A stretch of DNA of 64,000 nt from an uncultured Bifidobacteriaceae bacterium (GCA_964640655.1 CAZXFT010000006.1:73686-137685), one strand, 5' to 3'. Positions 2,314-23,504 are shown, numbered from the stretch's first letter. Program-made: numbers and translations. The notes: generated by a model from the sequence alone, not told the origin.

Positions 2314-5300
2314 TTAATTCTCGTTCACAAAGCGCTGCACATCGGCAACAAGCTTAGTGAAATCGGTCTTGATTCCCGGCCAGAATTGTTCAACTTCAAT
2401 ATGATTAGCTGCTTTGGCAGAGGCTTCCATTTTACGCATATTCTCGGTCAATACAGCATAATTAAATGCAGAAATAGTACCGCGCATCTTATGTGATATT
2501 TCGTTCACCTCTTTCATATCGCGTCCGTTAACAGCCATTTCCAATGAGTTGATTTGTTTGTCGGCTGACTTAAGCAACAATCCGGAAATATCTTTCATCA
2601 AACCAAGATCGTTCATACACTGCTCCTTGAACTTGTAGATATCAAAACAATATCCATTTTTAAGTTGCAATTCTTTCTTTGATACTGCCTGAATAGTATT
2701 ATCAATTGGTGCGTCTATAGTTCCAAATATAGACGCCAACAAGTCAAATACTTGTTCTGTTTTGATAGGTTTTGAAATGTAATGATCCATACCGGCTTCT
2801 ATACATAGGTCTTTGAACATTTTAATAGCATGTGCGGTCATTGCTATAATAGGGATGTGGTCTCCACGCTCCTTTTCTATCTCACGTATGCTACGTGTGG
2901 CTTCATAACCGTCCATTTCAGGCATTTGGACATCCATCAGTATCACATCATACTTATTGATCTTAAATAAGTTAACTGCTTCTAATCCATTATGGGCTAT
3001 GGTAATATCGTGCCCCTGATTACCGAATACTGCACGACCTAGTTTCTGATTAATTACATCATCCTCAGCATACAGAATTTTTAAAGGTCTTACCTGTTTA
3101 TGAATGGGAGCAATAACCTGTTTTTCGCGAATAACACTTCGGTTAGATTTTTGACGGAACATTTTGTTGATTTCAACCAGAAGTTCCTTGGTCAATACCG
3201 GCTTGGTTAGAAATCCGTCTAACTGATGTTCAGCCATTCCCTGTTCATCTAATGAAAGATTCAAGCTTGATAGAATGACAATTTTTGGGAAGCCATATAT
3301 GGCTTCATTTTGTCTAATATAATCCGTTAGCATCAATCCATCCATCTCCGGCATTTGCATATCAAGAATCAAAAGATCATATAAATTTGATTTTGCCGCA
3401 GCTTCATTCAATTTTTGAATACAATCAGGACCATCTTCTGCAATACTTAACACTCCTACCAGCTTGGACAACTGACCGTCGAGGATTCGTCTGTTTGTTG
3501 CATTATCATCAACCACCATCACAGTCATTGATTTTAAGAAATCTATGTTAACCGGCAACGCATCCTGAACTGCTATACCTATACCAAAATTTACTGTGAA
3601 ATGAAAAACACTACCCTTGCCCAATGTACTGTTCACAAACATTTGACCCTCCATCATATTAACCAATTTACGAGTGATGGTTAATCCCAAACCTGTTCCG
3701 CCATACTTTCGTGTAGTTGACCCATCGGCTTGCTGGAATGGTTCAAAAATGTTTTTGATTTTGTCTTCAGGAATACCAATTCCTGTGTCAGAAACATATA
3801 CATGTAGTGTAGCTTGTTGGTCGTTTTTATTTTCAACTACAACACGAACAGATACCTCTCCTACTGAAGTAAACTTTAATGCATTACCAACAAGGTTTAC
3901 TAATATCTGACGGAAACGACCCGGGTCTCCAATAAGAACTTCCGGTAGGTCATCATTGATTTCAAGTATAAGTTCAATACCTTTTTCTTTAGCCTTAATT
4001 AATAACAGACGTAAAGTTTCACTTATAACTTCGCGAGGGTCGAATTCAATAAATTCCAAATCCAGTTTACCTGCTTCAATTTTGGAAAAGTCGAGTATGT
4101 CGTTTATAACTATTAGCAGGTTTTCGGCTGAAGTTTTTACTAAATCAACGTAACCACGTTGTTCATCACTGAGCTTTGTTGCTAAAGCCAAATCAGTCAT
4201 ACCCAGAATACCGTTCATTGGTGTTCTGATTTCGTGACTCATATTAGCGAGGAACTCACTTTTTGCTCTGTTCGCACTTTCAGCAGCATCCTTAGCCCGC
4301 AATAATTGTATCTCGGCATTCTTAGCAGGTGTAACATCACTTGCCGTGCCACGATAACCAATAATATTACCTTGAATATCGTAGTAAGGTGTGCCACTCA
4401 TTGAAAGATAAATCTCCTCACGACGTTTGGTATAAATCTGAATTTCTATGTTTTTAAATGGATGTCCTTCCGAAAATATTTTCTTCATCAAAGACATATC
4501 ATTCAATTTGCTGGATGCGAGCAAATCGTAAAATGTTTTACCATACAACTCACCTGGCATATATCGGATTGCAGTGAAAACGCGCTCTGATAAATAGGTA
4601 AGTTCAAGTTTCTGATTGGTTTCCCAAATAAACTCACCAGCTGCATCGGTAACATCACGAAAACGTTGATCACTGATGCTTAATGCAATTTCAGTCTTCT
4701 TACGATTGCTAATCTCATCTTTGAGTTCTTCTTTTTGTGAGAAAGACTTTAATAAAGAGCGCGCTAACGCGCCAAACTCATTGTTTTCTTCAGACAAACC
4801 TCTGATCTCAATAGGATTTTCTGTGGCTAATGATTTGGTAATACTGGCTAATGGCGAAGTAATCCAGTTGTAAATCATTACCAATAAAAGCAACAAAATG
4901 GCAATACAAAAGATCAGGTTATAATAAAAGTTTCTGTTCGATGAATCCATAAACTGCAGATACATCAATGCAGGAACTTCTATGGAAACATAAGCAAGTG
5001 TATTTCCGTCTATATCTGCTAAGGGACGCAACGATGTAAAAGAATTTTTATCCTTTAGGTTGTTTAATGACCCAAGACATTCGTTTTCGTCTTTGCCAAA
5101 GCATAGTTTGATAGTTCCGTTTGTTAACAGGCCTAATTCGTTCAGGTATAGTTCATCCCAAAGTCTTGCTACAAACAAATATCCGCCTCTAGTACTTTTG
5201 CGTTCACGGTCGTTGCGCTTGTGTATGGGAGCACCACGCATTTCAATAACTGAGTTGTTGTGTTTAACAAAAAACTGCGGATATACATTGGATGTAATAG

Positions 5301-5754
5301 TGTTGTTGGATGCAAATAATTTTTTGATTTCAACAGGGTTCAAATACAATGCATCACTCATATTTTTGTAACTGTCATACGCAGAGTAAACCGTATTAAA
5401 AGATGTATCCAGCACCCAAACTGTTGAGTAACCATATTCATTGATTAAGGAGTTGATAGTGTTTCTCTCTATAAAATTTACCTCTTTAGCATTCTCCTTT
5501 TTTGTAATGGTGTCGGATATGATGTTCACATAATTGAACAATAAATCCGATAACGAAAACTCGTTTGTTACAATACGAAGATCTTCACTTTTCAGTTCAA
5601 TGATCTTTGACATGTTCACGCTATTCTCACGTATTTTCAGTTCAATTAATTCATTGAATGATTGTGATTCAAAGTATTTATTTAGCCCAAATCCGGCTAG
5701 GAAGAGAACAAAAAATAGTGTTGTTATTAATATAATACGAAACTGAATCTTCAT
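2314..5754 (-). CDS. hybrid sensor histidine kinase / response regulator (sensor domain, PAS, HisKA, HATPase, 2x REC, HPt)
   Basis: An N-terminal TM, an extracytoplasmic region of about 270 aa and a second TM. These are followed by a PAS-like segment, the H-box [17 protein letters not shown] (ATPase G2), two receivers ([20 protein letters not shown]) and a C-terminal HPt (HKMRGT). Confidence 0.9.
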
Positions 5755-5800
5755 ATAGGGGCTAAATAACCAGGTGTTTTAGGTTTGATTAGGTATGAAA

Positions 5801-6628
5801 TTACTTTTTTGAAAAACTGTATGCTACCGTTAATCCACCGTTAGCTAATACACCTTTACGCTGGTTAGAATATGAACGCATAAAATTACTAAACAGACTG
5901 AACTGTGGTTTAAAGGTTATCCGATCAGAAACTTCATAGGTTGCAAACAACTCAACCCTTGAATTACGCAATGTTTGAGGTGCGTTGTTCTTAGATTTGA
6001 TAATAAATTCTGATTTAGGTTGAACCGGAACAAAAAATTCAGTGAAAGCAGCATTTCCCCAACCCATTAAAACCCGGGTATCTATACTTAAGCGATGATT
6101 TACACGAGCTTCCTTATAAAAACCATACTCAACTTGAAATGCTCCAAAATTTCCACACACATCAACCATTGGATTAATCATAACACCTACCGGCTCTAGT
6201 TCATATTTTACTGCAGTGCTGAGTAAGGTGGTGAAGATGTTTTTAAAGTTAGAAGGATAGAAAAATGATGTCAGCTGAGGAACTACAGATAACTGTTGCG
6301 TTAATCTTTTTTCATAGCTTACAAATAAGTTTATGTCCGGATTGTATTTGCTGCCGTTATTAACCATTAGAGGCATGTGACTCCAACTTTGAATCTTTAA
6401 ATCTCCGTATTGAGCCAACAAACTAGGACGGGTTACCACACCGGAGTAAAATTCAATCCCTTTCCAGACATAACTGTTCGTAAGGGTTTGTTCTGTGCTG
6501 TATTTCCAATGAGGTTTTTCCTTAAACACAGTTGTGTCAGTAGCAATCAGGAGACCTGAGGCTTCTTGTGCATAGGATGATACCGTAATTAACATACAGA
6601 TAATCAACAAATTGTAATGAATTTTCAT
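5801..6628 (-). CDS. hypothetical outer-membrane beta-barrel protein
   Basis: Signal peptide (..VSSYAQE), alternating amphipathic strands throughout, and aromatic-rich C-terminal strands. No family was recognised. Confidence 0.45.
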   Translation of the reverse strand: MKIHYNLLIICMLITVSSYAQEASGLLIATDTTVFKEKPHWKYSTEQTLTNSYVWKGIEFYSGVVTRPSLLAQYGDLKIQSWSHMPLMVNNGSKYNPDINLFVSYEKRLTQQLSVVPQLTSFFYPSNFKNIFTTLLSTAVKYELEPVGVMINPMVDVCGNFGAFQVEYGFYKEARVNHRLSIDTRVLMGWGNAAFTEFFVPVQPKSEFIIKSKNNAPQTLRNSRVELFATYEVSDRITFKPQFSLFSNFMRSYSNQRKGVLANGGLTVAYSFSKK

Positions 6629-6727: not shown

Positions 6728-7420
6728 TTACGCCTGAACTCGGCGTTTTTCTGACCATTCGAAGATGGTAATATTCATCATTAAAAGTACGAAAGAATAC
6801 ATTGTATCTTCAACCGGTATAGTGTGTATTCTGAATCCGCAGTTTTCATTGTCATTATAAAGCACAACCGGCATTGCTGTTAGAATTCCATTTACTACAA
6901 GAAATGGAATGAGATGAATGAGATAAGTTACTGAGATTACTTTTACAAACCGACCTTTGAAAATGAAATAGTAGATGATACTAATAATTGCAGAGAAAAC
7001 TGCAGTTACAAAAGTGTAGAGTTTAGAAAAACTAATGATGGCTATACAAGCAAAGAGTATGGTAAGAAAAAGAAAAAACTTCCCTGCTGTGCCGGAGCTG
7101 TTATCCATTGGCCAGCGTGTTCTGAAAATGATATAGATAAAAAGGCAACTAAAGGGAATAGTGAGAAAGAAAAGGCATTCCTCTAAGGGCAAATTATAGA
7201 TATTAATTCCGATAAGATATTGATAATTAAATGACCATACACCTGATTGTGTGAATAGAATGTCCCAAATAATAAAGAATGTCGCAATTAAAAAAACACC
7301 AGGTGCTAAGTGTAACCAATATCTGTGATAGGCTACCTTTTTGTCAAAACTCAGAGCAAGCGGCCCTAGTACCGTTAGTAAGTTGATGAGTAAATATGTA
7401 TATGGCTTTAGTGTATCCAT
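6728..7420 (-). CDS. lycopene cyclase domain-containing membrane protein (fused CrtYc/Yd type)
   Basis: 230 aa and polytopic. The N-terminus YLLINLLTVLGPLALSFDKK and an internally repeated TM pattern are typical of the small lycopene-cyclase-domain family. It sits in the crt cluster and overlaps the upstream ORF by 13 nt. Confidence 0.7.
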   Translation of the reverse strand: MDTLKPYTYLLINLLTVLGPLALSFDKKVAYHRYWLHLAPGVFLIATFFIIWDILFTQSGVWSFNYQYLIGINIYNLPLEECLFFLTIPFSCLFIYIIFRTRWPMDNSSGTAGKFFLFLTILFACIAIISFSKLYTFVTAVFSAIISIIYYFIFKGRFVKVISVTYLIHLIPFLVVNGILTAMPVVLYNDNENCGFRIHTIPVEDTMYSFVLLMMNITIFEWSEKRRVQA

Positions 7421-7908
7421 TGTTCCAACTGGTTCAACTCAGCATTAGAGCATAGTTTATGATACTTTAAAAATGCAATGACATTCTTTGCCGATGTTCT
7501 TCCGGCTATGGCTACATAGTTATTAAAATGAGATATAAGCACTTGCTTATCCTCTTTTATGTGATGGCTCATACCTAGGATTGAAGGCGTGTACTGTTCC
7601 ACAGTGAGTCGCAAATAACGAAACTCCGGATTTTTTGAGTCTTCTTGAATCACTTTTTCAAAAACATCTCCTGCCTGTGAAACTGTTTTAATTTTGGAAT
7701 AGGGATTTATCTGAAACTGAGCTGTTGACGCTGTCAATGCAGCAATGAATGCTGTGGTTGTAGGTGAAGGATTCCGTGTTTCTTTTAAAAACTTCAAATA
7801 AGCCATACATTGTTTTTCATCATTGACAATGTCAGAATAATTGTTTCTCAGATTAAGTAATGAAAATGAATCCTGAATAATAATCAGACACAGGATGAAA
7901 GGCATCAT
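7408..7908 (-). CDS. hypothetical protein embedded in the carotenoid operon
   Basis: 166-aa ORF with a hydrophobic N-terminus (MMPFILCLIII) and a predicted helical remainder. It overlaps the crtB stop by 4 nt (ATGA) and the cyclase start by 13 nt. No recognisable motif. Confidence 0.5.
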   Translation of the reverse strand: MMPFILCLIIIQDSFSLLNLRNNYSDIVNDEKQCMAYLKFLKETRNPSPTTTAFIAALTASTAQFQINPYSKIKTVSQAGDVFEKVIQEDSKNPEFRYLRLTVEQYTPSILGMSHHIKEDKQVLISHFNNYVAIAGRTSAKNVIAFLKYHKLCSNAELNQLEQWIH

Positions 7909-8741
7909 ATTTTGTTCAGCTTATTTACTACATAGCATTGTGCAAGCAGCCATGCCTTTTGTGAATCTGTAACTCTGAATCGGATTTGTTGTACAGCCGA
8001 CGCAGATTGTTGCTTAATTTTCTGAAAAAGTTTTTTATAATAAACATAAGCAAGATAAACACCAAGGCGTGAGCCAACAGGTAACATTCTTATTCCCTTC
8101 AATGCCTCATCAAAATCTGCCTGAATGTCTTTTTCAATTTCAAGTTTATCATGCTCTGAAAACTCTTTGAAGTTGACATTTGGAAAATAAACGCGACCAC
8201 GAACTATATAATCGCTTTTTAAGTCGCGTAGAAAATTGACTTTTTGAAAGGCAGCACCAAGCCTCCGTGCATATGGTTTGAGCCGTTCATACTCTTCTAC
8301 ATTGCCTTCGGTAAAAATATGCAGGCACATTAAACCTACTACTTCCGCCGAGCCATATATGTATTCATGATAACCACTTGAATCGTAATGATTTTTTTGT
8401 AGATCAAGTTCCATACTATACAGGAAAGCATCTGTCAGTTCCTTTTCAAATCCAAAACGATTTGCAACAAGTTGATAGGAATGCAAAACCGGATTTAAAC
8501 TTATCTTTTCTTCTAAAGCCCTGTATGTTTCATTTTTAAAACGCTCGAATAACTCATATTGATTGGTATGATAAAAGGTGTCAACAATCTCATCTGCATA
8601 ACGAACAAAGCCATATACTCCATAGACAGAATCGCGATATTCTTTGGCCAAGGTTCTGATGCCAAGCGAGAACGAAGTACTGTAAAGGTTCGTAATGACC
8701 TTACTGCTCTTTAATGCTGATTTATCAAATAACTCCATCAT
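7905..8741 (-). CDS. crtB: phytoene synthase
   Basis: YSTSFSLGIR.., YGFVRYADEIVD and DLQKNHY..Y.YGSAEVVG are squalene/phytoene synthase Asp-rich regions. The gene is adjacent to crtI. Confidence 0.9.
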   Translation of the reverse strand: MMELFDKSALKSSKVITNLYSTSFSLGIRTLAKEYRDSVYGVYGFVRYADEIVDTFYHTNQYELFERFKNETYRALEEKISLNPVLHSYQLVANRFGFEKELTDAFLYSMELDLQKNHYDSSGYHEYIYGSAEVVGLMCLHIFTEGNVEEYERLKPYARRLGAAFQKVNFLRDLKSDYIVRGRVYFPNVNFKEFSEHDKLEIEKDIQADFDEALKGIRMLPVGSRLGVYLAYVYYKKLFQKIKQQSASAVQQIRFRVTDSQKAWLLAQCYVVNKLNKI

Positions 8742-10209
8742 CTTGTAAAATACGTTCGGTTACTAAGTTTGAACTGATAACGACTATTGGCAAGCCGGTA
8801 CCAGGAGTTGTACTAGCTCCTACATAATATAAGTTACTGAATTCTTCATCTTTGTTAGATGGTCTGAAAGCGCCAATCTGTTTCATATCGTGCGCTAAGC
8901 CTAATCCACTTCCTTTATAAAGGTTAAACTTATCACGCCAATCAACCGGGGTGTAAATGGTTTTTGTTATAGTGTTTGCATGGATGTCATAACCTATTCG
9001 ATTCGATAAATCTTTGATGATATTGTCGGTTAACTGTTCTTTATCACTCCAATCACTTTTATAACGTAAATCGGGAACCGGGCACAGTATAAAGATATTT
9101 TCACATCCTTCGGGTGCACACTCAGGATTAGACTTTGAACTCACATTCACATAATAATAGGGCTTATCAGGACTTATTGATGTTGTGAATATTTTATCGG
9201 CGTATTGTTTAAAGTTATCGCCAAGGAAATAATTGTGATGATGAATATTATCTAGCTTTCCTTGTACACCAAGGTATATAGTAAATGGAGCTAAAGTCCA
9301 ATGCAGCGTATCGAGTTTATCCTCCGAATACTTTTTACGTTTTAACACTGAACCTCTAAAAGCTGCAGCATCGCTGTTAATTACAAACTTGTCCGATTTC
9401 CAGACACGACCGGTCTTGTCAATTAACTCTGCCTTGTTTCCTACTGTTTGTTTATAGGAAACTATTTCGGTGTTAAATACGAACTCAACCCCACGATTCT
9501 TTAGTATGTCAGTTATCTTGGTAACAATGTCATACATACCACCTTTCACATTCCAATAACCATCGTGTTGTAGTTCGGTATAGTTTAGTAAGCTGTATAC
9601 TGCAGGAGTGTTAAATGGTGTGGCACCCAAAAAAAATGCAACCAGAGAAAAAATGATTTTTACATCTTCGGATTCGAAGTGCTTGTCCAGTTCATTCCAC
9701 ATAGAGCGAAACATAAATGGCGCATGCTTTAATGGTACCGTAGATAAGGACATAAAATAGTGAAGCATAGTATTAAAGTTGCGCTTAATCACTTTATGTT
9801 CTGTATCGTGAAAAATGCTTGCTGCACGTTTCAAATATTTAGTGGCCTTGCGTTCAAAATCAGGTTCAATTTCCTGAAACTCTTTAGCCAGTTTATTTAA
9901 GTCTTTATGTATGAAATAGGGTTTTGAACGATTGGAGAAATAAACAGAATATACCGGGTTTAGCTCGTTAAAATGGAGTGGGTTCTTAATTCCGCAGTAA
10001 TTGAATAATTCTTCAAACTCATAACTCATACTAAAAAATGACGGACCTATGTCGAAACTGAAACCATCTTTAACCAATCGATTGAGTCTGCCGCCAGCCT
10101 GATGATGTTTATCTATGATAGTTACTTTGTAACCTTTAGAAGTTAGTCGAAGAGCTGTTGCTAATCCGCCAAGACCGGCACCAACAATTGTAACGTGTTT
10201 ACCCTGCAT
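8725..10209 (-). CDS. crtI: phytoene desaturase
   Basis: N-terminal FAD fold VTIVGAGLGGLATALRL and C-terminal YYVGASTTPGTGLP. The 494-aa size is typical of CrtI. Confidence 0.9.
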   Translation of the reverse strand: MQGKHVTIVGAGLGGLATALRLTSKGYKVTIIDKHHQAGGRLNRLVKDGFSFDIGPSFFSMSYEFEELFNYCGIKNPLHFNELNPVYSVYFSNRSKPYFIHKDLNKLAKEFQEIEPDFERKATKYLKRAASIFHDTEHKVIKRNFNTMLHYFMSLSTVPLKHAPFMFRSMWNELDKHFESEDVKIIFSLVAFFLGATPFNTPAVYSLLNYTELQHDGYWNVKGGMYDIVTKITDILKNRGVEFVFNTEIVSYKQTVGNKAELIDKTGRVWKSDKFVINSDAAAFRGSVLKRKKYSEDKLDTLHWTLAPFTIYLGVQGKLDNIHHHNYFLGDNFKQYADKIFTTSISPDKPYYYVNVSSKSNPECAPEGCENIFILCPVPDLRYKSDWSDKEQLTDNIIKDLSNRIGYDIHANTITKTIYTPVDWRDKFNLYKGSGLGLAHDMKQIGAFRPSNKDEEFSNLYYVGASTTPGTGLPIVVISSNLVTERILQDDGVI

Positions 10210-10255: not shown

Positions 10256-10948
10256 TTATTGAAAATGGTTTTCTTGATTGGTGACTAATTGTTTGTGAAT
10301 CTGAATTGCACGGAATGAATATCTAATGCCAACAAGCAAAGAAGCAAATGCACCAAATAAGATAAGCGTATTGTTGCTAATCATTAAAAAGTAATCATAT
10401 GAACCATGAAAAAATATTGCCGCAGCTAATCCTATCAACTTATACGATTTAGGATAACTACGCATTGCAGCTAAACCATAAAAATGCCCCATCAGTACTG
10501 CGAAAGTTGCATGAGCTGGAATAGCAGTAAACATGCGCATAATAGCCACATTTAATCCTCCCTGCATAACATAGAAAATGTTTTCAAGAGTAGCAAAACC
10601 CATAGAAATAAAAACACTGTATACAATTCCATCAAATGGCTCATCGAATGACTTTTGCCGCGTAGAATATCTATCAAGAACAAAATACTTTACAAACTCT
10701 TCTATAAAACCTATAATTAAAAAAGATTCAATAGCCGTTCTTAAATAAAGATTATTGATCCCTAAAATTGAAACGTCCAGCATATTCTCAATAAAAGCAG
10801 CTGGAAAGACAGTACATGCACCCAACAGGAAGCTGTAAAAAAGTACAGAGCGTGGCTCACCACGATAGGCATCCTTCACATAGATGTATAAACATATGAC
10901 AACTGCAGGCCCTAATGTGATAGCAGCAAGTATCAGATATTGTAACAT
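10256..10948 (-). CDS. PrsW-family intramembrane metalloprotease
   Basis: Polytopic membrane protein with the PrsW signature motifs EEFVK, FATLEN and HGSYD. The start is set at ATG 10948 (MLQYLILAAITLG). The longer track ORF (to 11053) would run through a terminator hairpin and overlap the sigma gene. Confidence 0.8.
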   Translation of the reverse strand: MLQYLILAAITLGPAVVICLYIYVKDAYRGEPRSVLFYSFLLGACTVFPAAFIENMLDVSILGINNLYLRTAIESFLIIGFIEEFVKYFVLDRYSTRQKSFDEPFDGIVYSVFISMGFATLENIFYVMQGGLNVAIMRMFTAIPAHATFAVLMGHFYGLAAMRSYPKSYKLIGLAAAIFFHGSYDYFLMISNNTLILFGAFASLLVGIRYSFRAIQIHKQLVTNQENHFQ

Positions 10949-10961
10949 ATTCGGTGAAAAT

Positions 10962-10990
10962 AAAAAAACCCGGATAAGTACCGGGTTTTT
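10962..10990 (-). terminator. intrinsic-terminator-like hairpin between the sigma gene and the PrsW-like gene
   Basis: Minus-strand transcript: AAAAA-CCCGG-UACUUAU-CCGGG-UUUUUUU. It begins 22 nt after the sigma stop, and its U-run ends 13 nt before the PrsW ATG. Confidence 0.55.
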
Positions 10991-11012
10991 ATGATGCTGG
11001 ATGTAATTTTGA

Positions 11013-11522
11013 TTAATAACGAACAATTCTTTTTTGCAACTCTTTGCGTGCAAAAAATATTCGGCTTTTTACTGTTCCTAGTGGCAGGTCTAATTCGTCG
11101 GCTATCTCCTGATACTTGAATCCTTTATAATGCATCATAAAAGGAACGCTGAAATCTTTACTGATTGAGTCCATAGCGCGTTCAATTTCCTGCATCACCA
11201 TGTTGCTCTCACCTGAATTTTTTAAAACCGGTGAGTAAGACACCAATAATTGTTGCCCCTCTGTGTTGTCTGCAACTACTACCCTTTTAGAGGCACGACG
11301 ATAGTTGTTGATAAAAATGTTTCTCATAATAGTAAACAACCATGCTTTGAGATTGGTCCCTTCTGAGAATTTGTCTTTGTATAGTAATGAACGGTAAACC
11401 GTTTCCTGAATCAGGTCACGTGCATCGTCTGAATTTTTAGTAAGGTTATAGGCAAACGGATAAAGAGTTTCGCTGTGATTAACAACTTCTTCTTCGAATT
11501 TGATAGGGAGTGTAGCAGACAT
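11013..11522 (-). CDS. ECF-type RNA polymerase sigma-70 family factor
   Basis: 169 aa. Region 2 reads DLIQETVYRSLLYKDKF..NLKAWLFTIMRNIFINNYRR. Region 4 reads YQEIADELDLPLGTVKSRIFFARKEL. The start is set at ATG 11522 (MSATLPIKF). The upstream extension in the track uses TTG in low-complexity AT-rich sequence. Confidence 0.85.
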   Translation of the reverse strand: MSATLPIKFEEEVVNHSETLYPFAYNLTKNSDDARDLIQETVYRSLLYKDKFSEGTNLKAWLFTIMRNIFINNYRRASKRVVVADNTEGQQLLVSYSPVLKNSGESNMVMQEIERAMDSISKDFSVPFMMHYKGFKYQEIADELDLPLGTVKSRIFFARKELQKRIVRY

Positions 11523-11565
11523 TTTGTTTAACAGTTTTTTGTTTTCGTTCAACAAAAGTAATAAT

Positions 11566-11577
11566 TTGTTTAAACAA
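11566..11577. promoter_or_regulatory. perfect 12-bp palindrome TTGTTTAAACAA upstream of the sigma gene (candidate operator)
   Basis: The palindrome lies 44-55 nt upstream of the sigma ATG. AAACAAA recurs three times in the same leader. It is an AT-rich context, so chance occurrence is possible. Confidence 0.25.
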
Positions 11578-11728
11578 AACAAGTTTTTATTAAACATTTT
11601 TTTCAGCAAAAGAATAATAAATTCGGAATAGAACTATAAAAGTCAACAGAAACGGCTATTTAGGGCCATTAGGGGGCATTAAATTTTGTTGAAAATAATC
11701 TTTATTCTATTAAACAGAACAAGGAAAA

Positions 11729-12622
11729 TCAGTTCTGACTCATCTTTAGGTCTATTGAACTGACTATTTCTGATAGTTCATTGAAAGTGACAATATTATT
11801 TGAAGACTTGATATTATTCTTTGAAATCTGGTAACCGGACAAACAACACTGTACATTATTCAACTTGGTTTGAAGTATTTCGATATGTGCATATATACTC
11901 TCGTCATCCGGTGTTGCAGTGAATACACTGTAAAGTTGATCTGGTTTATAATATTCAACTATACTTAGTAAGTCGTTGAGAGGAACCGATTGTCCTAAGT
12001 ATATAACCTGATATCCTCTTGACTTAAGGGAATAGTACAAAAACAATAAAGGTATTTCGTGCAGCTCATTTTCTGGTAAATAAAGGACTGCTTTAAGAGA
12101 TGTACCTGAATTAGAAGGCATCAATCCGTCTATGGCGACAATCATCTTCTGACGGATAAGATTTGAAATAAAATGTTCCTGAGCAGGTGTGATGGTACCA
12201 ACTTGCCACATAATACCTATACGACGAAGAAATGGTAGAACTATTTGTATCATAGCCTTTTCAAAGCCGTGATGAAGGATGGCGTTAGAAAAAGTTTTAT
12301 CAAAGCGCGACTCATTCAACTCGTTCATAGAGAGTATGAGAGCATCAATCAGTGTATCTCTGCCGGTATTTTGATTGAGTAATTCTGAAACTGCATGTTC
12401 TATTTCAGATTGAGACATTTCAGCGATATTAGAGATTTTGTACCCCGACTTATTGAGTAATGATACATTCAGTATCAACCGCAATTCATTATCACTGTAT
12501 TCGCGAATATTCCCTTCGCTGCGCTTTGGGTTTATCAACCCATAGCGCTGCTCCCATATACGAAGCGTGTGGGCTTTAATGCCGGAGAGATGCTCTAAAT
12601 CTTTGATACTGTACGTACTCAT
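11729..12622 (-). CDS. MerR-family transcriptional regulator with B12-binding domain (CarH/LitR-like photoreceptor candidate)
   Basis: MerR HTH YSIKDLEHLSGIKAHTLRIWEQRYGL. W-x9-E-H signature WQVGTITPAQEH. Rossmann-like C-terminus with an E-x-H loop (ENELHEIP). Confidence 0.8.
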   Translation of the reverse strand: MSTYSIKDLEHLSGIKAHTLRIWEQRYGLINPKRSEGNIREYSDNELRLILNVSLLNKSGYKISNIAEMSQSEIEHAVSELLNQNTGRDTLIDALILSMNELNESRFDKTFSNAILHHGFEKAMIQIVLPFLRRIGIMWQVGTITPAQEHFISNLIRQKMIVAIDGLMPSNSGTSLKAVLYLPENELHEIPLLFLYYSLKSRGYQVIYLGQSVPLNDLLSIVEYYKPDQLYSVFTATPDDESIYAHIEILQTKLNNVQCCLSGYQISKNNIKSSNNIVTFNELSEIVSSIDLKMSQN

Positions 12623-12687
12623 ACAAGTGGCTCTAACACCAAAGAAAGCATAATGTTTAAAATATACTAAAATATTTTTGAACGCAT

Positions 12688-13326
12688 CTAAATCAAATTG
12701 GCCAGTATAAAGAAGGCCAACTGTATTACAAATATATATGGTGCGAAATCGTTACGCAGCTTAGATTTTGATGCTAAAAGAGATAGGACAAAAATGTAGG
12801 ACAAGCCAAACCATACTGCATAATTTTTTAGCGGCACTTTATTATCAGCCCATGACCACATTCCTGTTCTGATAGCAACCGGTTCAATTAAAACATCAAG
12901 TGCTACCAGCATTATAGCAGCAAGCAAGGCATTACCAAAGGCTCCAAATTTTAAATTCTTGACCAGCGAAGTTGTGCTATAAACCAATATCAACCAGTTA
13001 ATACCAATGACTAATGGAGTGTTAAATGCTTTCAAACCCAGGGCTCTGCCATATTTGTATTCACCAAAGATTTGTCCGGTGTTAACACCAACAGCCTCAA
13101 CAACAAATGAGACAACATAGATACCGGACAGGAATGCAATTATTCGAAAGTTCCAATGCTTTTGATAGAAAAGCATAGTGCCAAACACGATTAATAAATG
13201 AAAAGGAGCCAGTCTCTGAAATATGTCTTGCAGACCGCTGTATCTCAAACAAATCAAACCAACAACATGCAGAACCGATAAAAAAATTAAGGGTTTGGTA
13301 AAGTTGGCAGATTTCTTATCGCTCAT
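12688..13326 (-). CDS. polytopic membrane protein, DUF422-like / carotenoid-biosynthesis-protein-like
   Basis: 212 aa with about 7 hydrophobic helices. Its position directly upstream of the crt regulator matches the family usually annotated 'carotenoid biosynthesis protein'. The assignment rests on architecture and context only. Confidence 0.5.
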   Translation of the reverse strand: MSDKKSANFTKPLIFLSVLHVVGLICLRYSGLQDIFQRLAPFHLLIVFGTMLFYQKHWNFRIIAFLSGIYVVSFVVEAVGVNTGQIFGEYKYGRALGLKAFNTPLVIGINWLILVYSTTSLVKNLKFGAFGNALLAAIMLVALDVLIEPVAIRTGMWSWADNKVPLKNYAVWFGLSYIFVLSLLASKSKLRNDFAPYIFVIQLAFFILANLI

Positions 13327-13368: not shown

Positions 13369-14652
13369 TTATCGGGAAAGCAATGAAAAAAATGTTTGTG
13401 CTTTAAGTAGACATTCTTCATACTCCATTTCTGGAATCGAATCGTAGGTAATAGCGCTGCCTGTATGATAGGATGCGTAGCGTGTTTGAGCATTATAAAG
13501 CAATGTTCTTATGATTACATTAAAATCAAAATCTCCATCAGGATTGATATAACCGAGGCAGCCCGAATACACATTTCGTTTGGTGTCTTCCAATTGTTCA
13601 ATGCGTTTCATCACTTCTATCTTAGGTGCACCTGTCATAGAACCCATTGGAAAAGTAAGTCTAAGTGCATCTATGGGATGCACATCCTGTCTGAGTTCAG
13701 ATGTAATGGTCGAAATCATTTGATGAACGTTCGAATATGAATAAACCTGACATAGTTCTCTGACACTCACACTACCTGTTTCAGATGAACGAGTCAGATC
13801 ATTGCGAACCAGGTCAACAATCATTACATTCTCGGCACGCTCTTTTTCATTGATCTGTAATTTTAGTTTATTCTCTTCGTCTTGAGAAGAATTGACTAAA
13901 TCTCTTGCTGCTGTGCCTTTGATGGGTTGAGAGATTAATGTGTTTCCGGCCTTCTTTAAAAATCTCTCAGGACTACAGCATACCACGTAACAATCAACTA
14001 CTTTTAAAAACGATCCAAAAGGCATCATCGAGACTTTATTCATTTTTTGATAAAGTGTAAATGGATCTGCTATAAAATCTTCTGCATAGAATTCCTGGCA
14101 ATAATTCAACTCATAATAATTACCGTCCACTATATCTTGTTTGATTTGATTAACACTGTTAAGGTATTTCTCTTTTGGTGTTCTGTTTGAAATGTTGGTC
14201 AGAGAAACAGAATATTTCCTTGAGTAATCTGAAGCTAAATTCAATTGGGAATAAATAACTTCGGGAAATTCAGCATCGGATTCAATGATCAATTCATTGC
14301 GTGACTGACGAATAAGTATTATGGGATTAAAGAAGAAGATTTCCGGGAATGAAGTATGTTCTTCATTGCCCGATTGAATATTTATAGTTTCATTCTTCAC
14401 ATCATAACCAATATACCCCAGCAGCCAATTTTTCTTATTGAACAAAGATTTCAATTGATTCCAACATGAGCCGTCTGAGAAAGGAATGCACTCAGCACCT
14501 GTAGCTAGCAAGATTTCAAACGACGAGAATTCATCATTCAAATAATTGTTAGAATCAAGAATGATCAGGTATGGGTTACTACTATAGAGGGAATAAAAAT
14601 GATATCGAAGCCTGTCAACTTCGAGCGGAGCAAAAACACCGCGATGTTTCAA
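13369..14652 (-). CDS. pabB: aminodeoxychorismate synthase component I (chorismate-binding enzyme)
   Basis: C-terminal chorismate-binding motifs SPERFL, PKGTAAR, ENVMIVDLVRND, FPMGSMTGAPK and GCLGYI. The short N-terminal half is typical of PabB. TTG start. Confidence 0.75.
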   Translation of the reverse strand: MKHRGVFAPLEVDRLRYHFYSLYSSNPYLIILDSNNYLNDEFSSFEILLATGAECIPFSDGSCWNQLKSLFNKKNWLLGYIGYDVKNETINIQSGNEEHTSFPEIFFFNPIILIRQSRNELIIESDAEFPEVIYSQLNLASDYSRKYSVSLTNISNRTPKEKYLNSVNQIKQDIVDGNYYELNYCQEFYAEDFIADPFTLYQKMNKVSMMPFGSFLKVVDCYVVCCSPERFLKKAGNTLISQPIKGTAARDLVNSSQDEENKLKLQINEKERAENVMIVDLVRNDLTRSSETGSVSVRELCQVYSYSNVHQMISTITSELRQDVHPIDALRLTFPMGSMTGAPKIEVMKRIEQLEDTKRNVYSGCLGYINPDGDFDFNVIIRTLLYNAQTRYASYHTGSAITYDSIPEMEYEECLLKAQTFFSLLSR

Positions 14653-14682: not shown

Positions 14683-14895
14683 TTAATAATCATCATCGTC
14701 GTCATCGTTATAGCCTTTTATGGCATCTAACTTAAAGTCGTTGTCGAAGTTAAATTCTTCAAAGTCTTCGTCAATTAATGAATCATCATCGTCGTCTCCT
14801 TTCTTGCGAGATGATTTTTTAGGACTTGCTTTTTGCGGAGCAGCCTTTTTGGCCGCTTTTGCGGCGGCTTTCTTGCCGGGTTTATTGGTTTTCAT
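14683..14895 (-). CDS. small block-polyampholyte protein (histone-H1-like basic head, poly-Asp aromatic tail)
   Basis: 70-aa ORF with an ATG start. Residues 1-33 carry 13 Lys/Arg (KKAAAKAAKKAAPQKASPKK). Residues 34-70 carry 19 Asp/Glu with interspersed Phe/Tyr and end in DDDDDDY. Confidence 0.55.
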   Translation of the reverse strand: MKTNKPGKKAAAKAAKKAAPQKASPKKSSRKKGDDDDDSLIDEDFEEFNFDNDFKLDAIKGYNDDDDDDY

Positions 14896-22628: not shown

Positions 22629-23504
22629 TCACAATGCAGAAGTTTCTGCTTCGCGAACGATTTTTTTCACCAAACCCTGTAACACATTTCCCTGCCCACA
22701 TTCAATAAATGAACGCGCGCCATCATTGAACATATGCTGAACACTTTGTGTCCATCTGACAGGGGCAGTTAACTGAGCTATTAAATTTTGTTTGATGATG
22801 TTTTCATTCCTAACCGGTTCGGCATTTACATTTTGATACACCGGGCAAACAGGTTTTGAAAAATCTGTAGACTCAATGGCTTGTTGCAACTCAATACGTG
22901 CAGGCTCCATTAACGGTGAATGGAATGCTCCGCCAACATTTAAGACAAGCGCTCGTTTGGCTCCGGCTGCCTTCATTGCCTCGCAGGCTTTGTTAACACT
23001 TTCCAATGAACCGCTGATCACCAACTGACCGGGACAATTATAATTTGCGGGAACCACAACACCATTTGTCTGAGCACATATTTCTTCCACCTTAGCATCA
23101 TCTAATCCTAGTATGGCAGCCATTGTTGAAGGCTGCAACTCACAGGCTTTTTGCATGGCCAATGCTCTTTTACTTACGAGTACCAAAGCATCATCAAATG
23201 TTAATGTTTTATTAGCAACCAATGCAGAAAACTCGCCGAGAGAATGCCCTGCAACCATATCAGGTTTAAAAGAATCGCCGGAAACTATGGCTTTGATAAC
23301 TGAATGCACAAAGATAGCAGGTTGAGTAACCCTAGTTTGTTTCAAATCATCTTCGCTACCATTAAACATAATGTCTGTTAATCGGAAACCTAGAATGTCA
23401 TTGGCTTTTTCAAAATATTCTTTGGCTAAAGGATTGGTTTCATAAAGTTCCTTGCCCATACCGGGGGTTTGAGATCCTTGTCCGGGAAAAATGTATGCTT
23501 TCAT
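22629..23504 (-). CDS. fabD: ACP S-malonyltransferase
   Basis: FPGQGSQ, GHSLGEFSA and GAFHSP motifs; 291 aa. Confidence 0.93.
   Translation of the reverse strand: MKAYIFPGQGSQTPGMGKELYETNPLAKEYFEKANDILGFRLTDIMFNGSEDDLKQTRVTQPAIFVHSVIKAIVSGDSFKPDMVAGHSLGEFSALVANKTLTFDDALVLVSKRALAMQKACELQPSTMAAILGLDDAKVEEICAQTNGVVVPANYNCPGQLVISGSLESVNKACEAMKAAGAKRALVLNVGGAFHSPLMEPARIELQQAIESTDFSKPVCPVYQNVNAEPVRNENIIKQNLIAQLTAPVRWTQSVQHMFNDGARSFIECGQGNVLQGLVKKIVREAETSAL

Follow-up and report, generated by a model that had tools for sequence, protein, structure and literature searches.

A candidate CarH/LitR-type light switch wired to an ECF sigma factor at a Bacteroidota-type carotenoid locus that encodes no recognizable anti-sigma factor

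How is carotenoid synthesis controlled at a locus where the genes for a B12-photoreceptor-type regulator, an extracytoplasmic function (ECF) sigma factor and a PrsW-type membrane protease follow one another directly upstream of crtI and crtB, with no recognizable anti-sigma factor among them? The locus occupies positions 10,256–12,622 and the adjoining carotenoid genes of a 64,000-nucleotide (nt) stretch of DNA (hereafter, the window) from an uncultured Bifidobacteriaceae bacterium (GCA_964640655.1, CAZXFT010000006.1:73686–137685). An earlier description made from the DNA alone (the sequence-only reading) proposed a Bacteroidota version of a cascade leading from light to a B12 sensor, to an ECF sigma factor and to the crt genes, and placed PrsW in the slot of the missing anti-sigma factor. 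The cascade gained support, from the CarH residues and fold of the regulator, from an operator-like repeat and from the presence of the module in dozens of loci. With moderate confidence, we interpret the locus as a light switch of the CarH/LitR type that controls an ECF sigma factor without an anti-sigma factor, that is, as the Bacteroidota version of a LitR/LitS-like cascade.

The gene assignments in the window were checked by Pfam and NCBIfam profile searches. Regulator, sigma factor, prsW, crtI, crtB, an uncharacterized open reading frame (ORF) termed orf166 and a cyclase gene follow one another on the minus strand where they had been placed by the sequence-only reading. The elements it described were present: the regulator ORF with its MerR helix-turn-helix, Wx9EH signature and E-x-H loop, recovered by Pfam and by alignment to Thermus CarH; the 169-residue ECF sigma factor next to it; the polytopic PrsW-type protein with its motifs; and the crtI-crtB-orf-cyclase set on the same strand, with profile support. 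The MerR_1, B12-binding_2, Sigma70_r2/r4_2 and PrsW families were matched, and the B12-binding model remained under its cut-off.

The regulator gene (11729–12622, minus strand) encodes 297 residues that match Pfam MerR_1 (8.4e-15), MerR (5.3e-9) and B12-binding_2 (7.2e-8). In a phmmer comparison with solved structures, the top match was Thermus thermophilus CarH (E = 1e-18, residues 3–222), the DNA-binding domain of which aligns with residues 3–72; overall identity to CarH is about 20%. The segment WQVGTITPAQEH (W139-x9-E149-H150) aligns with W131 and E141-H142 of Thermus CarH, and ELHEIP aligns with CarH ERHEIG, H188 being the counterpart of the axial His177. The W, E and H of Wx9EH do not vary in 37 orthologues from related loci, 36 of which also have the axial His, and W139, E149, H150, E186, H188 and E189 are all invariant in 41 database homologues.

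The AlphaFold2 model of the regulator (mean predicted local distance difference test score, pLDDT, 85.5; predicted template modeling score, pTM, 0.73) consists of a winged helix, a bundle of four helices and a five-stranded Rossmann domain. Its best Foldseek matches are full-length Thermus CarH structures 5C8D and 5C8E (E about 4e-15; 3.7e-15 for 5C8D), and it superposes on the isolated CarH cobalamin-binding domain with a template modeling (TM) score of 0.75–0.78 and a root-mean-square deviation of 3.5–3.9 Å. Alignment and predicted structure together indicate a CarH/LitR-like protein that shares its DNA-binding domain, Wx9EH cap, axial His and overall fold with the adenosylcobalamin (AdoCbl) photoreceptor CarH. 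By its sequence, the protein is a distant CarH relative and not an equivalog.

Alignment of the DNA upstream of the sigma gene across loci revealed an inverted repeat, TGTTTAA-N16/17-TTAAACA. The window contains three copies between the regulator and sigma genes: a proximal one with one mismatch and a 16-nt spacer (11525–11554), a perfect distal one, also with a 16-nt spacer and conserved across loci (11567–11596), and a third, TGTTTAA-N16-TTAAACA with one mismatch, just past the MerR stop codon (11687–11716). A weak copy with two mismatches and a 17-nt spacer (12654–12684) lies about 30 nt 5′ of the MerR-B12 start. Within the 64 kb of the window, one perfect match and four within one mismatch were found, against 0.0 and 0.4 expected from shuffles; 1.25 Mb of control loci contained 8 matches. 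The repeat lies upstream of sigma in most loci and is almost confined to the stretch between the MerR and sigma genes, with one to three copies there, and to the DNA 5′ of MerR, where at least 11 other loci have better-matching copies. In an Algoriphagus locus (L167, 8896–9076), the three-repeat layout is the same as in the window, with one copy just past MerR and a hairpin after the first.

The position of the repeat relative to the sigma gene is consistent with a role in repression. A housekeeping-type sigma-gene promoter is predicted, as read from the sequence, at 11553–11583 on the minus strand (CTTG at 11583–11580, 19 nt, then TACTTTTG at 11560–11553), and the proximal repeat begins within its −7 box, its other end lying 2 nt from the sigma ATG; across loci, the proximal copy ends 1–15 nt ahead of the sigma start codon. 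In 26 of 61 loci, and in 44 when the pattern is relaxed, a TAnnTTTG box, which we take to be the Bacteroidota housekeeping (sigmaA) −7 element, overlaps or abuts the left half of the proximal repeat. At the fixed T and ACA positions, the half-sites agree with the 11-bp CarH recognition repeat, nAnnTnnACAn (PMC8156234), the entire consensus being matched by 57 and 62 of 112, yet they are arranged in inverted orientation. We infer that the inverted repeats are putative operators of the regulator that would occlude the housekeeping promoter of sigma. The weak repeat upstream of the MerR-B12 gene is possibly a site of autoregulation.

Two other matches to the repeat were set aside. One, at 23338–23368 with a single mismatch, lies inside an ORF and was judged to be due to chance. 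The other, with two mismatches and an 18-nt spacer, straddles the crtI start codon and belongs to a class found at chance level (15 against 7.4 expected).

The sigma gene (11013–11522, minus strand) encodes 169 residues from Met30, with Pfam Sigma70_r2 and r4_2 domains and neither an N- nor a C-terminal extension. Among NCBIfam models, only the generic sigma70-ECF model was passed; among proteins of solved structure, M. tuberculosis SigH and S. coelicolor SigR are its nearest relatives. No anti-sigma factor is encoded beside the gene: between or beside regulator, sigma and prsW, no anti-sigma-like ORF was found, the other ORFs being of 22–43 residues and mostly overlapping these genes, and the 64-kb window contains no small ORF with the HxxxCxxC motif of ZAS anti-sigma factors. 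The only two ORFs with HxxxCxxC, of 363 and 455 residues, were rejected as ZAS candidates; they are large and were taken to be Nuo-type respiratory subunits. The product of orf166 was likewise rejected as a hidden anti-sigma factor: its hydrophobic segment lies at the extreme N-terminus and therefore leaves no room for a cytoplasmic sigma-binding domain, it matches no family, and among the fetched loci it has a counterpart in L016 only.

The absence of an anti-sigma factor noted in the sequence-only reading was thus confirmed in the window, and it extends further, as no anti-sigma-like gene lies next to sigma in any of 68 related loci. Judged by these loci, the absence is a family-wide property that reaches beyond this window. 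In a reclassification of ECF sigma factors, 16 groups are without any canonical regulator and some of them may be controlled at transcription only (PMC7826278); the main text of that paper makes no mention of carotenoid or PrsW contexts.

The sigma factor has 7996 homologues at E ≤ 1e-10. We mapped the proteins of the window onto 80 metagenome loci with sigma homologues of 45–62% identity, and for 68 of these, with at least 700 nt past sigma, the gene that follows sigma was determined. This gene is crtI in 34 of the 68 loci, the type-1 isopentenyl-diphosphate isomerase gene idi in 14 (L099, L106–L108, L112, L116, L120, L132, L138, L139, L142, L146, L157 and L163) and prsW in 7. A MerR-B12 gene lies upstream of sigma in most of the loci whose contig reaches far enough. 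The loci of the crtI type have the order sigma-crtI-crtB-idi-crtD-cruF-(ORF of about 160 residues)-cyclase with minimal, operon-like gaps, and in most relatives about 5–40 nt separate sigma from the crt genes. Cultured Algoriphagus lutimaris (L167; GCA_017051705.1) has the order CruF-CrtZ-MerR-sigma-crtI-crtB-cyclase-IspH. From these gene orders, the MerR-sigma-crt module is widespread in Bacteroidota and is present in dozens of loci.

We propose that, in the dark, the B12-loaded regulator would sit on the inverted repeats and block the sigma promoter. Light would destroy the upper ligand of the cofactor, whereupon the repressor would leave the DNA and sigma would be made. The sigma factor, with nothing to sequester it, would be active once made. 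In most relatives, crtI, crtB and the genes after them would be read through from the sigma promoter. In the window, a terminator-like hairpin with a 10-bp stem, a 7-nt loop and a U tract, absent from the sequence-only reading, lies between the sigma stop and the prsW start (10955–10990, minus strand; folding energy −13.7 kcal/mol, z −3.05), and L083 keeps a hairpin with a U tract at this position with a different stem and loop sequence. Given this terminator after sigma, a separate sigma-driven promoter for prsW, crtI, crtB, orf166 and the cyclase gene is presumed.

Several observations weigh against this interpretation. With the Pfam B12-binding model, the regulator reaches 18.8 bits (E-value 1.5e-3; cut-off 32.1), and with NF052513, the CarH equivalog model of NCBIfam, 103.6 bits (cut-off 400). 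The full classical B12 motif, ExHx2G-x41-SxV/T-x22-27-GG (PMC8156234), is partly kept, with ExHxxP, SxF and SG for ExHxxG, SxV/T and GG: E186-L-H-E-I-P191 is followed 40 residues on by S232-V-F and then by S262-G263, of which G263 is the only invariant Gly of the GG pair in the alignment of 41 homologues. The repeats are inverted, whereas CarH operators are described as tandem direct repeats, and their 16/17-nt spacing would also suit the −35/−10 pair of an ECF promoter. No sigma-dependent promoter motif was found upstream of prsW or crtI. Finally, in the sigma tree the prsW-adjacent sigma factors form one clade, in which the sigma-prsW pair survives in 8 of 8 members despite rearranged flanks, which could reflect selection.

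The change of G to P in the ExHxxG loop, described in the sequence-only reading as unusual, loses its significance once more orthologues are considered. The final position of the loop is G in 27, S in 7, P in 2 and L in 1 of the 37 orthologues, and mostly S in the closest database homologues; by this alignment, the change is lineage noise.

The alternative that survives best concerns the expression of prsW, which would be the non-regulatory first gene of a light-induced prsW-crtI-crtB-orf166-cyclase transcript and serve membrane-protein quality control when the membrane suffers light damage. The gap between prsW and crtI, which share a strand, is only 46 nt long and holds no recognizable promoter for crtI, and the order prsW-crtI-crtB recurs in L002 and L016. 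However, prsW follows sigma with no crtIB after it in L083, L084 and L006, a housekeeping −7-like motif just 5′ of prsW is shared by L002, L005 and L006, and the DNA upstream of prsW contains no operator repeat. Inspection by eye and an exhaustive dyad search of eight regions upstream of prsW revealed no shared motif; the best dyad, which lies within the conserved coding end of sigma, was shared by 4 of the 8 sequences, and shuffled sets reached as many as 3. We regard this role of prsW as unlikely.

According to a second alternative, the repeats would be the autoregulated promoter of sigma itself, with TGTTTAA as the −35 and TTAAACA as the −10 element, and the MerR-B12 protein would act elsewhere or otherwise. 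The spacing of 16/17 nt is typical of ECF promoters, and repeats are also found ahead of three sigma homologues whose surroundings lack MerR and crt genes over 10 kb (L117, L135 and L098). Yet the element is truly palindromic, as the site of a dimeric DNA-binding protein should be, and its right half, which lies 1–15 nt from the start codon (2 nt in the window), is unlikely to be a −10 box because it is too near the start codon and too variably placed. Furthermore, the housekeeping −7 box overlaps the left half of the repeat, additional copies lie 5′ of the MerR gene, and the half-site resembles the CarH recognition repeat. An autoregulated promoter is thus less likely than operators of the regulator, and we assign it a low probability.

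In L117 (9867–14830), a sigma homologue preceded by two repeats, with no MerR or crt genes within 10 kb, lies 2–3 kb upstream of genes judged by eye to be polyprenyl-synthetase-like and photolyase-like. This locus hints that the unit of repeat and sigma factor may serve a wider light response.

Further alternatives turn on the function of PrsW. Its 230 residues, encoded at 10256–10948 on the minus strand, match the intramembrane protease family PF13367 (8.2e-35; 120.6 bits against a cut-off of 23.5), while the NCBIfam PrsW equivalog model NF033739 was not passed (148.7 bits against 225). The residues of the EE, ExN, H and HGxYD motifs (E83, E84, E122, N123, H146, H181 and D185) are invariant in 30 homologues. 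The AlphaFold2 model (mean pLDDT 88.6) is a compact all-helical bundle with loops of no more than 10 residues, in which no soluble, extramembrane or sigma-binding domain was found; it has no significant neighbor in the PDB, the top TM scores of 0.53–0.57 being those of multi-pass membrane subunits (7tm3_6 and 5a63_C).

The start of prsW deserves a correction. The longest ORF spans 10256–11053, but its homologues begin at Met36, and the real gene is probably 10256–10948. The database copy has 265 residues and a TTG start, and its 35 extra N-terminal residues (window 10949–11053) overlap the end of sigma and the hairpin; the annotated start is probably wrong.

For a census of PrsW, we collected 80 homologue loci (L001–L080) from reference genomes across Bacteroidota, with identities of 42–51%. 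In 4 of these a sigma gene adjoins prsW, and the other 76 have no adjacent sigma and no crt genes within 10 kb. The usual neighbors of prsW in Flavobacteriaceae are genes for a peptidase, a NUDIX protein and acyl-CoA carboxylase subunits. The NUDIX gene, which resembles that of isopentenyl-diphosphate isomerase (85.7 bits against a cut-off of 127), directly precedes prsW in 20 of the 80 loci, all of Flavobacteriaceae (for example, L013, 9432–9998). Among closer relatives of the window, the order is CruF-MerR-sigma-PrsW with no crtIB downstream in L083, MerR-sigma-PrsW-outer-membrane protein-histidine kinase in L084 and CruF-PrsW-outer-membrane protein-histidine kinase in L081, where MerR, sigma and crtIB are absent from the locus. 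A MerR-B12 gene that seemed to lie on the L081 contig was discarded, the database match belonging to a different contig.

Phylogeny points to a single origin of the sigma-prsW pair. All eight members of the clade of prsW-adjacent sigma factors have prsW after sigma, and as they form one clade, the adjacency arose once. Within this clade, identities fall to 54% for sigma and 41% for PrsW, and the upstream and downstream neighbors change. In the PrsW tree, the sigma-adjacent copies do not form a separate paralogue group, and their length and motifs are the same as those of PrsW elsewhere. The association of sigma with PrsW holds throughout one clade, and at least 48 further orthologous sigma loci lack it.

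These results do not bear out the proposal that PrsW fills the slot of the anti-sigma factor or substitutes for it. In most orthologous loci, crtI or idi comes straight after sigma; 76 of the 80 PrsW homologues are located elsewhere; a hairpin lies between the two genes; PrsW has no extramembrane domain; and L081 has prsW without sigma. PrsW is most likely an ordinary neighbor protease, present by descent in one lineage, and not a replacement for the anti-sigma factor; its tie to the crt genes would go no further than co-expression.

A small chance remains with the view that PrsW was recruited to the light response in this one lineage, where it would cut an unlinked anti-sigma factor or another membrane protein upon light damage, or would simply be a member of the sigma regulon. 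Carotenoid synthesis would then combine the B12 light signal with a membrane-damage signal. The stricter form of this view makes PrsW a working partner of sigma in the clade, which cleaves an unlinked anti-sigma factor or tethers or processes sigma at the membrane, and which would bring in membrane damage as a second input besides the B12 light signal. The survival of the pair in 8 of 8 clade members while the flanks change, the intact catalytic residues and the existence of multi-pass membrane anti-sigma factors in light responses, such as CarR with its six helices (PMC8156234), are in its favor. They are countered by at least 48 orthologous sigma loci with neither an adjacent prsW nor an anti-sigma gene, by the location of 76 of 80 PrsW homologues away from sigma and crt genes, by the retention of prsW without sigma in L081 and by the terminator-like hairpin that parts the two genes in the window and in L083. 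Short loops, the lack of a soluble domain or of a distinct paralogue group, and the absence of any anti-sigma candidate from the 64-kb window argue in the same direction, and we consider the partnership highly unlikely. The question of what PrsW does matters only if one of these minority views is true.

Least probable of all is that the regulator works without B12, as a relative of the type of Myxococcus CarA or class II LitR, or senses the availability of B12 and not light: the degenerate Rossmann-domain motif (P191 and SG for GG) and the sub-threshold Pfam B12-binding and NCBIfam CarH (103.6 against 400) scores would fit, but CarA lacks Wx9EH (PMC8156234), whereas here neither W, E and H nor the axial His vary among about 40 homologues, and the predicted fold superposes on the CarH cobalamin-binding domain.

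The surroundings of the regulator-sigma pair add further carotenoid genes. Directly 5′ of the regulator lies a gene for a CruF-like carotenoid 1′,2′-hydratase (12688–13326, minus strand; Pfam Caroten_synth 8.7e-25), the NCBIfam CruF score of which (6e-24) is under the model cut-off; a CruF-like gene is found in the equivalent position in L016, L083, L005 and L167. Downstream of prsW, phytoene desaturase is encoded by crtI (8725–10209; NCBIfam crtI_fam 365 bits, cut-off 238), phytoene synthase by crtB (7905–8741; Pfam SQS_PSY 8.9e-40) and a fused lycopene cyclase with two CarR-type domains by the last gene (6728–7420; Pfam Lycopene_cyc 2.1e-34, in two stretches), all on the minus strand. Between crtB and the cyclase gene, orf166 (7408–7908, minus strand) encodes a protein of 166 residues that is hydrophobic at its N-terminus and belongs to an uncharacterized family. 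It is matched by none of the Pfam or NCBIfam models, and its family comprises 1126 cluster representatives of about 150–180 residues at E ≤ 1e-3 and has R21, E95, R97, R100, P108 and D120 as invariant residues; among 167 fetched loci, only L016 has an equivalent in the same position. An Rfam scan of the window matched no family, including no cobalamin riboswitch.

Farther out, pabB (aminodeoxychorismate synthase; 13369–14652, minus strand) is located 42 nt upstream of the CruF-like gene, and this pairing is kept in L081 and L083. It is preceded by a 70-residue ORF (14683–14895, minus strand) with a Lys/Ala-rich N-terminal half, an Asp-rich C-terminal half and no family match; a 70-residue gene is also called between purA and pabB, in the corresponding position, in L081 and L083. 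On the 3′ side of the crt genes, the stretch 2314–6628 (minus strand) encodes a 1146-residue protein resembling a hybrid histidine kinase and contains a 275-residue ORF, the product of which has an N-terminus like a signal peptide and matches no family. The L081 homologue of the kinase-like protein contains CHASE4, PAS, HisKA, HATPase and receiver domains, and the pair of kinase-like gene and 275-residue ORF lies directly 3′ of prsW in L081 and L084.

B12-based photoreceptors have already been studied in Thermus, Bacillus, Myxococcus and Streptomyces, and we found no mechanistic study of such receptors in Bacteroidota in the literature searched. Sunlit waters and soils are rich in pigmented Bacteroidota, and the compact conserved module described here, consisting of a CarH-like repressor, three inverted-repeat sites, an ECF sigma factor without an anti-sigma factor and carotenoid genes, could explain light-induced pigmentation in the phylum. 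Its operator geometry, which differs from the tandem repeats of known CarH proteins, offers a comparison. Cultured Algoriphagus and related genera carry the module, and Algoriphagus lutimaris provides a ready experimental model. The module could also supply parts for light-controlled expression in Bacteroidota, as LitR-LitS did for Streptomyces.

Compared with known systems, the locus shares individual features with several. In Bacillus subtilis, PrsW is the site-1 protease of the membrane anti-sigma factor RsiW in the SigW-RsiW-PrsW system. The PrsW of the window belongs to the same PF13367 family and has the catalytic Glu-Glu and His residues, but the window contains no gene for an RsiW-like substrate and the equivalog score falls short (148.7 against 225). 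The carotenoid cluster of Echinicola marina is listed with merR and rpoE, without further analysis (PMC8683446). The Cyclobacteriaceae clusters of that study have the gene set and order of the common form of the module (MerR, sigma, crtI, crtB and cyclase), with ispH in some; unlike the window, they contain no prsW, and the paper includes no analysis of B12, light, operators or anti-sigma factors.

In the CarQ-CarR system of Myxococcus xanthus, an ECF sigma factor is held by a six-helix membrane anti-sigma factor and light acts via singlet oxygen (PMC8156234). As in that system, an ECF sigma factor would drive carotenoid synthesis in response to light, and the gene beside it encodes a polytopic membrane protein. 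However, CarR is a DUF1109 protein that binds CarQ, whereas the membrane protein of the window is of the PrsW family and has no DUF1109 match, and carQ-carR are translationally coupled (PMC8156234), whereas sigma and prsW are split by the terminator-like hairpin.

The regulator itself resembles the CarH proteins of T. thermophilus, Bacillus megaterium and M. xanthus (PDB 5C8A–F; PMC8156234) in domain order, Wx9EH, axial His and fold, and differs from them in having P for G of ExHxxG and SG for GG. CarH operators comprise 3–4 tandem direct repeats (PMC8156234), whereas the half-sites here are inverted and 23–24 bp apart, center to center, and form 2–3 separate copies. CarH represses crt genes directly, with no sigma factor in between (PMC8156234), whereas a sigma factor would intervene here.

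The closest parallel in wiring is LitR-LitS of Streptomyces: there, LitR acts together with AdoCbl as a repressor of the litS promoter, and transcription from crt promoters is driven by LitS (PMC11519972), the promoter consensus of which is GCATCCR-N15-CVGAAD (PMC11519972). In both S. coelicolor and the window, a MerR-type B12 regulator adjoins an ECF sigma factor beside carotenoid genes, and the regulator is proposed to control the sigma promoter; the published LitR-LitS model likewise includes no anti-sigma factor (PMC11519972). The systems belong to different phyla and differ in operator geometry: litR and litS diverge from bidirectional promoters, whereas the genes here are in tandem with three repeats between them, and in most Bacteroidota loci, unlike in Streptomyces, the crt genes are packed directly behind sigma in an operon-like manner. 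It is by gene context and wiring that we liken the sigma factor of the window to LitS.

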